DNA of 64,000 nt, from the IMG/VR virus record IMGVR_UViG_3300031867_000032, positions 17,496-81,495 of that record. One strand, given 5' to 3'. This document shows positions 3,401 through 6,400 of the stretch, piece after piece; within the stretch, counting starts at the first letter, position 1, and each line of letters opens with the position of its first letter. The DNA is from a virus. Lineage: Duplodnaviria > Caudoviricetes. The notes beneath the pieces were generated by a model. That model was not told the origin of the DNA, made no database searches, and saw nothing but the letters and a program-made list of their open reading frames with translations. Position numbers and translations under genes: made by a program.

Positions 3401-6400
3401 AACAAGTTGCTTTACAGGCGGCTTTAACTTTTGGTATTCCTTTATTATTAGCTGGTTTAGGCGCTGCGGTTGGATATTATCAACAGCAACGAGAGGAAGC
3501 AGAAAAACTAAAGCAAGAACGTTTAGAAGCTTCAAATCAACAAACCGATGAGTTAAAGAAAAATGCAGCAAACATACAAGAGCTTTATAATAATTATAAA
3601 GAAACAGGAGAAGCGGCTGATGGTTTAAGAGAAGCTCTTGAACAACAAGCTGAAGCTTTAGGTATAGTAGTAACGGCTGCAGATGATTATGATAGTTTAA
3701 AACAAAAAATAGATGAAGCAACAGCTTCTCAATTAGCATATAATGCAGCTTTAAGAGGAGAAGATTCTTCTATCTCAAAAACAACTGCTACCGATGCTGG
3801 ATTAACTTTTGAAGATAAAAAGGCACTAGGAATTGATACGACTTCAGCTTCTTATGTTAGCACGGCTACTGGTCAAATGCAATATCAAGCAGATGGAAGT
3901 GTTTCTGCAGATATAGCAAAAACAGTTGAAAAATCAAAAGAATTAATAGATCTTGAGCAGCAAAGTATTGCAAATCGTAATGCAGAATTGGCTATTTTAG
4001 ATCGTGGTAATCCAAAAGAAGAAGAAAAATATCAGTTATTAAAACAGCAAAATACAGAAAGTCAAGATCGAATAGATCGTCTTACTAATTATGTTGAAGG
4101 AAATAAAGATTATTTAGATAATCAATATGCACAAGCTGAAAATAATGTATTATCAGTAGCTTTAAATACAGATCGTTTTAAGGGACAAGAAAATGCTGCT
4201 GGTAATTTTGAAATAACTTCTTATGAGCAAGCTCTTCAATATGTAAAAAATATTACAGATGAATTAGAAATTACAGAACAACAACAGCAAGAATTAGCTG
4301 CAACTGCTTTAGAATATGCTGGTAATCTTGAAGGCGCCGCGCAAGCTCAATTAGAGATAGCTCAAAATCAAATTGAACAAAATCCTTATGTTTATTCTGG
4401 AGTCCATGCAGGCGAATCCGGAATGAATAAAATCAATGAATTGGGTGAAAAATTTGATTTATCTAATCAAGCAAAAGCAAAAATATCAGATTTAATAGAT
4501 TGGTCTGATACAAATGAGCTAGATGCAAGAATCGCAGATTTAGCTGAAGAAATTGAAGAAGGTTTAAGTCAAGGAATGTCTCTTGATGATATTCTTTCTA
4601 AAATGCAAGAAAATCAAGCGATCGAACTTACAGATGATGAAATTCTTAAGCAAGAACGTGATGATTATGGGTATAATGGAGAAGATTGAGACCGAGATGC
4701 AGAAGGAGTTAAAGATTATGCTGATTCTCTTCAAGAATTGGCAGAAATTTCTGATGAAGTTGCAGATTCATTAAAAGATAATAGAAAAGCTGCTATTAGT
4801 ATCGCCGATGCAAATGCTCGATTAACAAAAGGAGTAAAATCTTTACAAGAAAATTGAGAAGATTGAAATGAAATTTTACAAGATAGTTCAAAAGAAGGAA
4901 CCCAAGAGTACGCTGAAGCTTTAGAAGGAACTGAAGCAGCATTAAGTAATATTTTTGACTATGATATTAGCGATACTTTTGCAAATTCTACAGCATTTAT
5001 TAAAGAACATTTAGACGATATTCAAGCGGCTGCAGATGGTGATGTTGAAGCAATTGATAGATTAAGAGTTGCTGCGGCGACTCAGATTGCTATAGATGCA
5101 GGAGTAGATTTCAGTAATTTAACTGCAGATCAACAACGTATTTGAGATGAAGTTATTAATTATCCTTATGATGATATAGAAATAGGTGCTGCTTTAGATA
5201 CCACAGCAGTTTGACCAGTTTTGCAACAAATGCAAGATCAACTTGGGTTAACAACTCAAGAAATGCAGAAAATTTTAGATTCATTAGGATTTGAGCCAAA
5301 AATTGACTATTTAGAGGTTCCAGCTGATGCTATTCAAAAAGATGAAGTTACAGATACTGGTACTTATACAGATGATAAAGGTCAAACTTATACCTTTGAA
5401 TTAAGTTCTGTATTAAATGGAGATACAAATACTTCTGTAAAGATTCCAATAATTAGTGGTTCAAGAACAACTTATCAAGGTGGAGGAAGTGTTGCTCCGC
5501 CAAACATTTCTAGTAAAGGTGGTTCTTGTTTTGTGGCTGGTACTTTAATTACCACTTTAACTGGCTTCTCTCCGATAGAACAAATCAAACAAGGGGATAT
5601 AGTTCTTTCTTATAATGAATCACTTCATCAACTTGAATATAGTACGGTAGTTCAGACTATGATCCATGATGTTATAGAACCTATTTATACTCTATATATT
5701 AAAAATGAACAATTAAGAGTTACTAGTATTCACCGCTTCTTAATTTCTCGTGATATTTTCCATTCAGCTCCACAATGAGTACCTGCGACAGACCTCCAAA
5801 TTGGTGATTGGATGTTCTTCGCAGATGGCACGTGACATTTAATTTATAACATTGAAGTTAATGTTGAACATCAAATTGTCTATAATTTTGAAGTAGCTGG
5901 AAATCACAATTACTACGTTGGCCGCAACCAAATTCTTGCTCACAATAAGGGTGGAGGAAAATCCTGCTTTGTAGCTGGCACTTTAATCTCTACTTCTTTT
6001 GGATATAAGCCTATTGAATTAATTAAACCTAATGATCTTGTACTTTCTTATAATGAATCATTATATCAAAATGAATATAGTAAAGCTGTTCAGACCATGA
6101 TTCATGATACTATAGAACCAATTTATACCTTATATATTAAGAATGAACAATTAAAAGTTACTGGTATCCACAGATTCTTAGTTTCTAAAGATATTAGTTT
6201 TGAACCACAATGAATTGCCGCACAAGATTTACAAATTGGTGATTGAGTATTATTAGCTGATAGTACTTGACATTTAATTTGAAAGATTGAAGTTAATCTT
6301 GAACATCAAATTGTTTATAATTTTGAGGTGGCGGGAAATCATAATTACTACGTTGGCCGCAATCAAATTCTTGCTCACAATAAAGGCGGAAGTGGCAAAA

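Follow-up and report, generated by a model that had tools for sequence, protein, structure and literature searches.

Tandem intein-like Hint domains form an optional, putatively self-removing cassette in the tape measure protein of a TGA-recoded phage

The tape measure protein (TMP) encoded on a 64,000-nucleotide stretch of a Caudoviricetes phage genome (positions 17,496 to 81,495 of the IMG/VR virus record IMGVR_UViG_3300031867_000032; hereafter the window) incorporates two adjacent Hint domains within a hinge rich in glycine, serine and lysine (window positions 5527-6381). On the basis of sequence comparisons, these domains look like an optional self-removing cassette rather than a built-in cleavage device, and each is followed by a lysine that is invariant among the Hint domains of related TMPs. 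The mechanism that we infer, and to which an even chance is given, is self-excision followed by amine-mediated re-ligation of the flanking parts, as in the type-A bacterial intein-like (BIL-A) domains or in BIL2 of Tetrahymena. The Hint pair represents a known kind of domain, with a distinctive invariant lysine, in an undescribed context: no BIL or PT-HINT domain was found described in a TMP in the literature searched, where the only such elements are the canonical inteins reported in the TMPs of actinobacteriophages (bioRxiv 10.1101/2025.01.02.630785).

Two intact type-A Hint domains in the tape measure protein

The two Hint domains (140 and 139 amino acids, aa) share 77 % identity at the protein level and 78 % at the DNA level, and both open with Cys-Phe and end with His-Asn, followed by Lys-Gly (Table 1). 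A first-pass annotation of this DNA had placed them in the TMP hinge with a KGGGKS linker between them, and had listed Cys1, TxxH, block F, the terminal His-Asn, the +1 lysine and the lack of an endonuclease as their features. The boundaries and the features are borne out in both copies, with no space for an endonuclease at 139-140 aa per domain, and the parts of the TMP remaining outside the Hint domains have the lengths given there (1697 aa for the N-part and 1136 aa for the C-part). The profile searches it had proposed all returned matches. The Pfam family PT-HINT (PF07591; cut-off 27.7 bits) matched in two stretches, with 98.9 bits for the whole TMP and 110.4 bits for the Hint pair, while Hint_2, Intein_splicing and the NCBIfam intein N- and C-terminal models, including TIGR01443 (intein_Cterm), matched as well. 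The closest solved structure by sequence is that of a C. thermocellum BIL domain (2LWY), which is matched end to end (phmmer E 3.9e-16). The same structure ranked first in a Foldseek search with an AlphaFold2 model of Hint 1 and its flanks (pLDDT 91), with a TM-score of 0.93, a root-mean-square deviation of 1.6 Å and an E value of 2.3e-12; BIL2 from the BUBL1 locus of Tetrahymena came second, ahead of mini-inteins and Hedgehog.

The N-terminal nucleophile (Cys1), the block B motif TxxH (T66, H69) and both marks of the type-A class occur in both copies: a C-terminal His-Asn (H139-N140), which separates type A from type B, and a non-nucleophilic +1 residue (lysine, without Cys, Ser or Thr). Among the properties of canonical class 1 inteins, the +1 Cys, Ser or Thr is replaced by lysine in both copies, and the insertion site is not a conserved functional site but a poly-Gly/Ser/Lys hinge that varies in length and sequence, while alleles that lack the element and have contiguous flanks do exist (75/120 nearest TMPs). 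Of the features of BUBL-type domains, the fold is matched well and ubiquitin-like domains are absent, while the conserved +1 lysine is a putative acceptor. A reading as a polymorphic toxin was rejected, since there is no toxin domain behind the Hint domains and Hint-less TMPs have a C-terminus homologous to the C-part; Pfam detected neither a toxin nor an enzyme domain in the C-part. With every defining feature present in their sequences, the two domains are classified as intact BIL-A/PT-HINT domains, in line with the class assigned in the first-pass annotation.

Searching with the Hint region retrieved 680 long proteins, and a PT-HINT and a TMP domain occur together in nearly all of the best 120 of these. 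Domain statistics were compiled from 157 full-length domains in 121 TMPs, in which Cys1, Phe2, T66, H69, H139 and N140 are invariant. Copies within one protein are 54-78 % identical, and each of them has, at the corresponding position in another phage, an orthologue to which it is closer than to its tandem partner. The two copies in the window differ from each other at 30 codons by synonymous changes only, including that of Cys1 (TGT/TGC) and several in block F, and the Nei-Gojobori method (NG86) gave a non-synonymous rate (dN) of 0.16 and a synonymous rate (dS) of 0.82, with a dN/dS of 0.20. Recent gene conversion was rejected as the source of their similarity because of the 30 synonymous-only differences. 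Together with the dN/dS value these differences indicate that the shared protein sequence has been kept by selection, so that both copies appear to be under purifying selection, as had been proposed earlier. Considering the invariant catalytic residues and the same dN/dS, both are probably active in autoprocessing.

It is thus highly improbable that the Hint domains no longer process and stay in the mature TMP as a folded spacer or plug. While some TMPs do carry folded domains, inactive domains would not be expected to retain invariant catalytic residues across 157 domains whose copies diverge to as little as about 54 % identity and have accumulated many synonymous changes. A change from zero to three copies would, furthermore, drastically alter a structural spacer, and folded inserts in a trimeric TMP are unlikely to fit the tail tube.

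Copy number and recombination at the hinge

To obtain a sample independent of the Hint domain, the 120 closest TMPs were ranked by the N-terminal TMP region. The survey for copy number suggested in the first-pass annotation distinguished 75 TMPs with no Hint domain, 43 with one and two with two, and TMPs with three copies also turned up in the Hint-region search. The median TMP lengths for zero, one and two copies (2787, 2948 and 3112 aa, respectively) indicate that the length of the host protein is constant whatever the copy number. Hint-less TMPs are continuous across a poly-Gly/Ser/Lys hinge, which occupies the same alignment columns as the Hint domains. In related TMPs, the Hint domains can therefore be described, from these alignments, as an optional cassette present in zero, one, two or three copies at a single hinge.

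A tree built from the last 620 residues of the TMP shows at least 15 changes in copy number and at least three in presence or absence. In one pair of TMPs, P0004 with two copies and P0042 with one, identity is about 30 % upstream, rises to 99-100 % at the first residues of Hint 2 and stays at that level as far as the C-terminus; such a joint indicates a recombination in the hinge that united two Hint domains. P0010 and P0054 are distinguished by a clean indel of one Hint domain plus linker. Tandem copies thus appear to be gained and lost by recombination in or near the hinge.

The TMP of the window is itself strongly mosaic: the nearest relative changes from one segment to the next (with identities of 92 % versus about 30 %), and the Hint hinge is among the breakpoints. 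The segment of residues 1-800 has 92 % identity with P0036, P0037 and P0042. For Hint 1 the identity is 89 % with copy 1 of P0004, for Hint 2 it is 96 % with the single Hint domain of P0019, and for the C-part it is 66-78 % with P0041 and P0009.

These comparisons bear on the possibility that the Hint domains cut both of their junctions and no re-ligation follows, leaving the N-part and the C-part as separate polypeptides, with the tandem arrangement making a break in the chain more likely. Many TMPs undergo proteolytic maturation, the +1 position lacks Cys, Ser or Thr, and the N- and C-parts, whose nearest relatives differ, are exchanged as separate modules, all of which would suit such cleavage. 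In published assays of BIL and PT-HINT domains, N- and C-cleavage products likewise dominate and splicing is minor (PMC4031507, PMC7664689). However, the 75 nearest TMPs that lack a Hint domain are single continuous chains of equal host-protein length, alleles with near-identical C-parts hold one or two copies, and a ruler broken in the middle would have no obvious means of setting tail length. Cleavage would also not need the strict +1 Lys/+2 Gly described below, as the +1 residue varies in relatives outside TMPs. Cleavage alone is therefore considered rather unlikely, although it is the strongest of the rival readings. The first-pass annotation had suggested a built-in self-cut of this kind: the domains do fit the cleavage biochemistry of BIL domains, but the continuity of Hint-less TMPs, the constant length, the shifts in copy number and the Hint-bound lysine fit it less well.

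An invariant lysine follows each Hint domain

The +1 residue is lysine in 157/157 domains and the +2 residue is glycine in 152/157, while the -1 residue is mostly Ser (77) or Gly (73). Linkers between tandem copies in the relatives are as short as KG. Across the wider PT-HINT family (11,129 matches) the +1 position is variable, including K, R, T, A, Q, N, C and others. Lysine is absent from 15/87 Hint-less hinges, and a requirement for lysine by the hinge itself was rejected on this basis. Taken together, the lysine-free hinges and the variable +1 residue outside TMPs tie the invariant lysine to the Hint domain and not to the hinge.

The nearest relatives of these Hint domains outside TMPs occur in tandem arrays of two to seven copies (P0123, P0163, P0164 and P0143). 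The host proteins of these arrays include subtilase proteins with PKD domains, surface-repeat proteins of the Listeria-Bacteroides type and Scabin/pertussis-S1-like ADP-ribosyltransferase proteins. The arrangement of BIL domains in tandem is thus a more widespread architecture that has been little described.

No close relative was found among the cultured phages in INPHARED, where the best matches (30-34 % identical) are in Ruminococcus phages. A single-protein scan of IMG/VR with the Hint pair gave no TMP relative and only one distant Hint locus (L003; 45 % identity, in a 652-aa open reading frame, ORF), and the same scan with the C-flank gave no relatives.

Proposed excision and re-ligation

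In the favoured scheme, each Hint domain would form a thioester at the (Ser/Gly)|Cys1 junction after translation, and cyclisation of the terminal asparagine would sever its C-terminal junction. The thioester would next be attacked by an amine of the invariant +1 lysine. One candidate is the alpha-amine released when the C-terminal junction is severed; for BIL-A domains, it has been proposed that a freed amine can attack the N-terminal thioester and so join the flanks (PMC4031507). The other candidate is the epsilon-amine, as in BIL2 of Tetrahymena, where the epsilon-amine of a lysine resolves the thioester to an isopeptide bond between K(epsilon-NH2) and a C-terminus (PMC8616854). The Hint domains would be removed and the halves rejoined into a ruler of about 2833 aa, matching the one in Hint-less relatives, and some of the chains would probably be cleaved off-pathway. 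Removal would be expected before tail assembly, because three chains with two folded 15-kDa domains each should overfill the lumen of the tail tube. Re-ligation is favoured by the combination of the continuity of Hint-less TMPs, the constant host-protein length, the interchangeable copy number and the Hint-bound Lys-Gly.

Several points weigh against excision and re-ligation, in addition to the predominance of cleavage in BIL assays. Purifying selection on the catalytic residues would be expected whether the Hint domains were a selfish element or a useful device for cleavage. A protease might cut the hinge of Hint-less phages, and their continuity is then no proof that an unbroken chain is required. 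The invariant lysine could have another role, for example in aiding asparagine cyclisation. Finally, the argument that the lumen of the tail tube is too narrow for folded Hint domains is a general one.

The thioester of the N-part could also be attacked by a lysine of another TMP chain, of a tail protein or of a host molecule, in a trans-ligation or cross-linking reaction resembling the cholesterol transfer of Hedgehog or the ubiquitin-like conjugation of BUBL proteins. The second-best structural match, BIL2 of the BUBL1 locus, conjugates its upstream domain to lysine side chains, and the lysine-rich hinges would offer many potential acceptors. However, Hint-less relatives do without such a reaction, Pfam found no ubiquitin-like or other cargo domain beside the Hint domains, and the invariant lysine is the +1 residue in cis, which favours a reaction in cis. 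Trans-ligation is thus improbable.

A more specific form of the excision and re-ligation scheme can be put forward tentatively. The Hint domains of TMPs may represent natural lysine-dependent protein splicing, with the +1 lysine serving as the nucleophile that resolves the thioester, which could introduce isopeptide branches into the ruler and provide a portable recombination joint. Should the epsilon-amine be used, the mature ruler would be joined through one or more isopeptide branches. The joint would be portable, suited to shuffling the N- and C-halves of rulers, because the cassette would excise cleanly whatever its context.

Comparison with known systems

The TMP Hint domains share with the C. 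thermocellum BIL (2LWY) and other PT-HINT domains the fold, Cys1, TxxH, block F, the terminal His-Asn and a length of about 140 aa, as well as the lack of an endonuclease and of a +1 nucleophile. They differ in their host, which is a phage TMP and neither a toxin nor a bacterial protein of the secreted or hypervariable kind, and in the poly-Gly hinge site, the invariant +1 Lys with its nearly invariant +2 Gly and the occurrence of zero to three copies at one site. Similarly, the pretoxin-HINT domains of polymorphic toxins (Rhs, MafB and CdiA-like) belong to the same Pfam family, with relatives that include toxin-bearing and surface proteins, but the region downstream of the TMP Hint domains is a conserved TMP C-terminus common to Hint-less relatives and not a toxin.

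BIL2 of the Tetrahymena thermophila BUBL1 locus (PDB 6Y75/6TMM) matches the fold of the TMP Hint domain (TM 0.73-0.79) at about 23 % identity, and its resolution of a thioester by a lysine amine to an isopeptide provides a precedent for lysine-based ligation. However, BIL2 is situated between ubiquitin-like domains, which it conjugates to other proteins, whereas the TMP Hint domains are flanked by a coiled-coil ruler and their lysine is the +1 residue in cis. Class 1 mini-inteins, including those in actinobacteriophage TMPs, have in common with the present, putatively self-excising domains a Hint fold within a TMP and the existence of contiguous alleles that lack the element. Unlike these mini-inteins, the TMP Hint domains have no +1 Cys, Ser or Thr and no homing endonuclease, are inserted in a variable linker, and occur in tandem.

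The tape measure gene and its genome setting

The window forms part of an 81.5-kb virus record with an estimated completeness of 57 %. Translation of the Hint stretch (5527-6381) with table 11 gives six in-frame TGA codons, while with TGA read as tryptophan it is open and lies inside the 3118-aa TMP ORF. The table 11 reading was rejected on account of these codons and of the homologous Trp95, which is encoded by TGG in copy 1 and by TGA in copy 2 and so supports the reading of TGA as tryptophan. The host phage of the TMP is TGA-recoded and has a genome of about 140 kb, and its kin form a large family of uncultured phages.

The TMP belongs to the TP901 family, as judged by its core-domain profiles, TIGR01760 (tape_meas_TP901; 111 bits, cut-off 28.8) and PF10145 (81.6 bits, cut-off 33.2), and by its place in a tail module downstream of the head genes, with the large terminase, portal and virion structural genes encoded upstream (Table 1). 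No recognisable sheath gene is found among the structural genes upstream of the TMP gene, and the tail is, given this, probably non-contractile. Directly 3' of the TMP gene are two giant ORFs of 2162 aa (9839-16327, + strand) and 2155 aa (16885-23352, + strand), for which there were no Pfam or PHROG matches and whose position suggests that they encode tail tip, baseplate or fibre proteins.

In-frame TGA codons are frequent in the structural genes on the + strand (436-43514), with 27 in the TMP gene and 19 and 30, respectively, in the next two ORFs. The genes of the replication block on the minus strand (47354-63712; Pol III alpha, NrdD, RecJ-like, DnaB, primase-like and AAA_24) contain between none and one each. 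Confinement of stop-codon recoding to late genes is a published pattern, with which the distribution of TGA in the window agrees. Within the 81.5-kb record (the window together with G000:C1:1-18000), which itself represents about 57 % of the genome, no suppressor tRNA-Trp(UCA) that would read TGA was found, and the sole tRNA found is a tRNA-Ser(AGA) (window positions 61420-61510, minus strand). A gene for a GmrSD_N (DUF262-type) protein (54846-55868, minus strand) is situated within the replication module and adjoins the Pol III alpha gene.

Table 1. Features of the tape measure gene and of its Hint-bearing hinge, in window coordinates
Feature	Position	Strand	Profile	Details
TMP gene	436..9792	+	TIGR01760, PF10145	3118 aa with TGA read as Trp; 27 in-frame TGA
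TP901-family tape measure core domain	892..1929	+	TIGR01760; PF10145 (residues 191-400)	Residues 153-498
N-side of Gly/Ser/Lys hinge	5473..5526	+		…YQGGGSVAPPNISSKGGS; -1 residue Ser
Hint copy 1	5527..5946	+		Residues 1698-1837, 140 aa; Cys1, T66xxH69, block F VYNFEV..NHNYYV, His139-Asn140
Inter-Hint linker	5947..5964	+		KGGGKS; Lys is +1 of copy 1, Ser is -1 of copy 2
Hint copy 2	5965..6381	+		Residues 1844-1982, 139 aa; catalytic set as in copy 1
C-side of hinge	6382..6435	+		KGGSGKKGGGSGSGQKPK; first residues are the +1 Lys (invariant) and the +2 Gly
C-terminal TMP part	6436..9789	+		Conserved in Hint-less relatives

Implications

The type-A BIL domains known so far come mainly from surface and toxin proteins of bacteria, and there is still debate over the reaction that they carry out in nature. 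The Hint family described here provides hundreds of natural examples at one host site with built-in controls, in the form of alleles with zero to three copies and an invariant +1 lysine, by which splicing through a lysine amine by a Hint domain becomes directly testable. If such splicing does take place, these domains would furthermore represent cysteine-free, lysine-directed ligation domains for protein engineering. For the large clade of uncultured TGA-recoded phages (about 140 kb) in which they occur, the findings indicate that the ruler tolerates optional self-processing inserts, and that the Hint-bearing hinge is a joint at which exchangeable halves of the ruler recombine.
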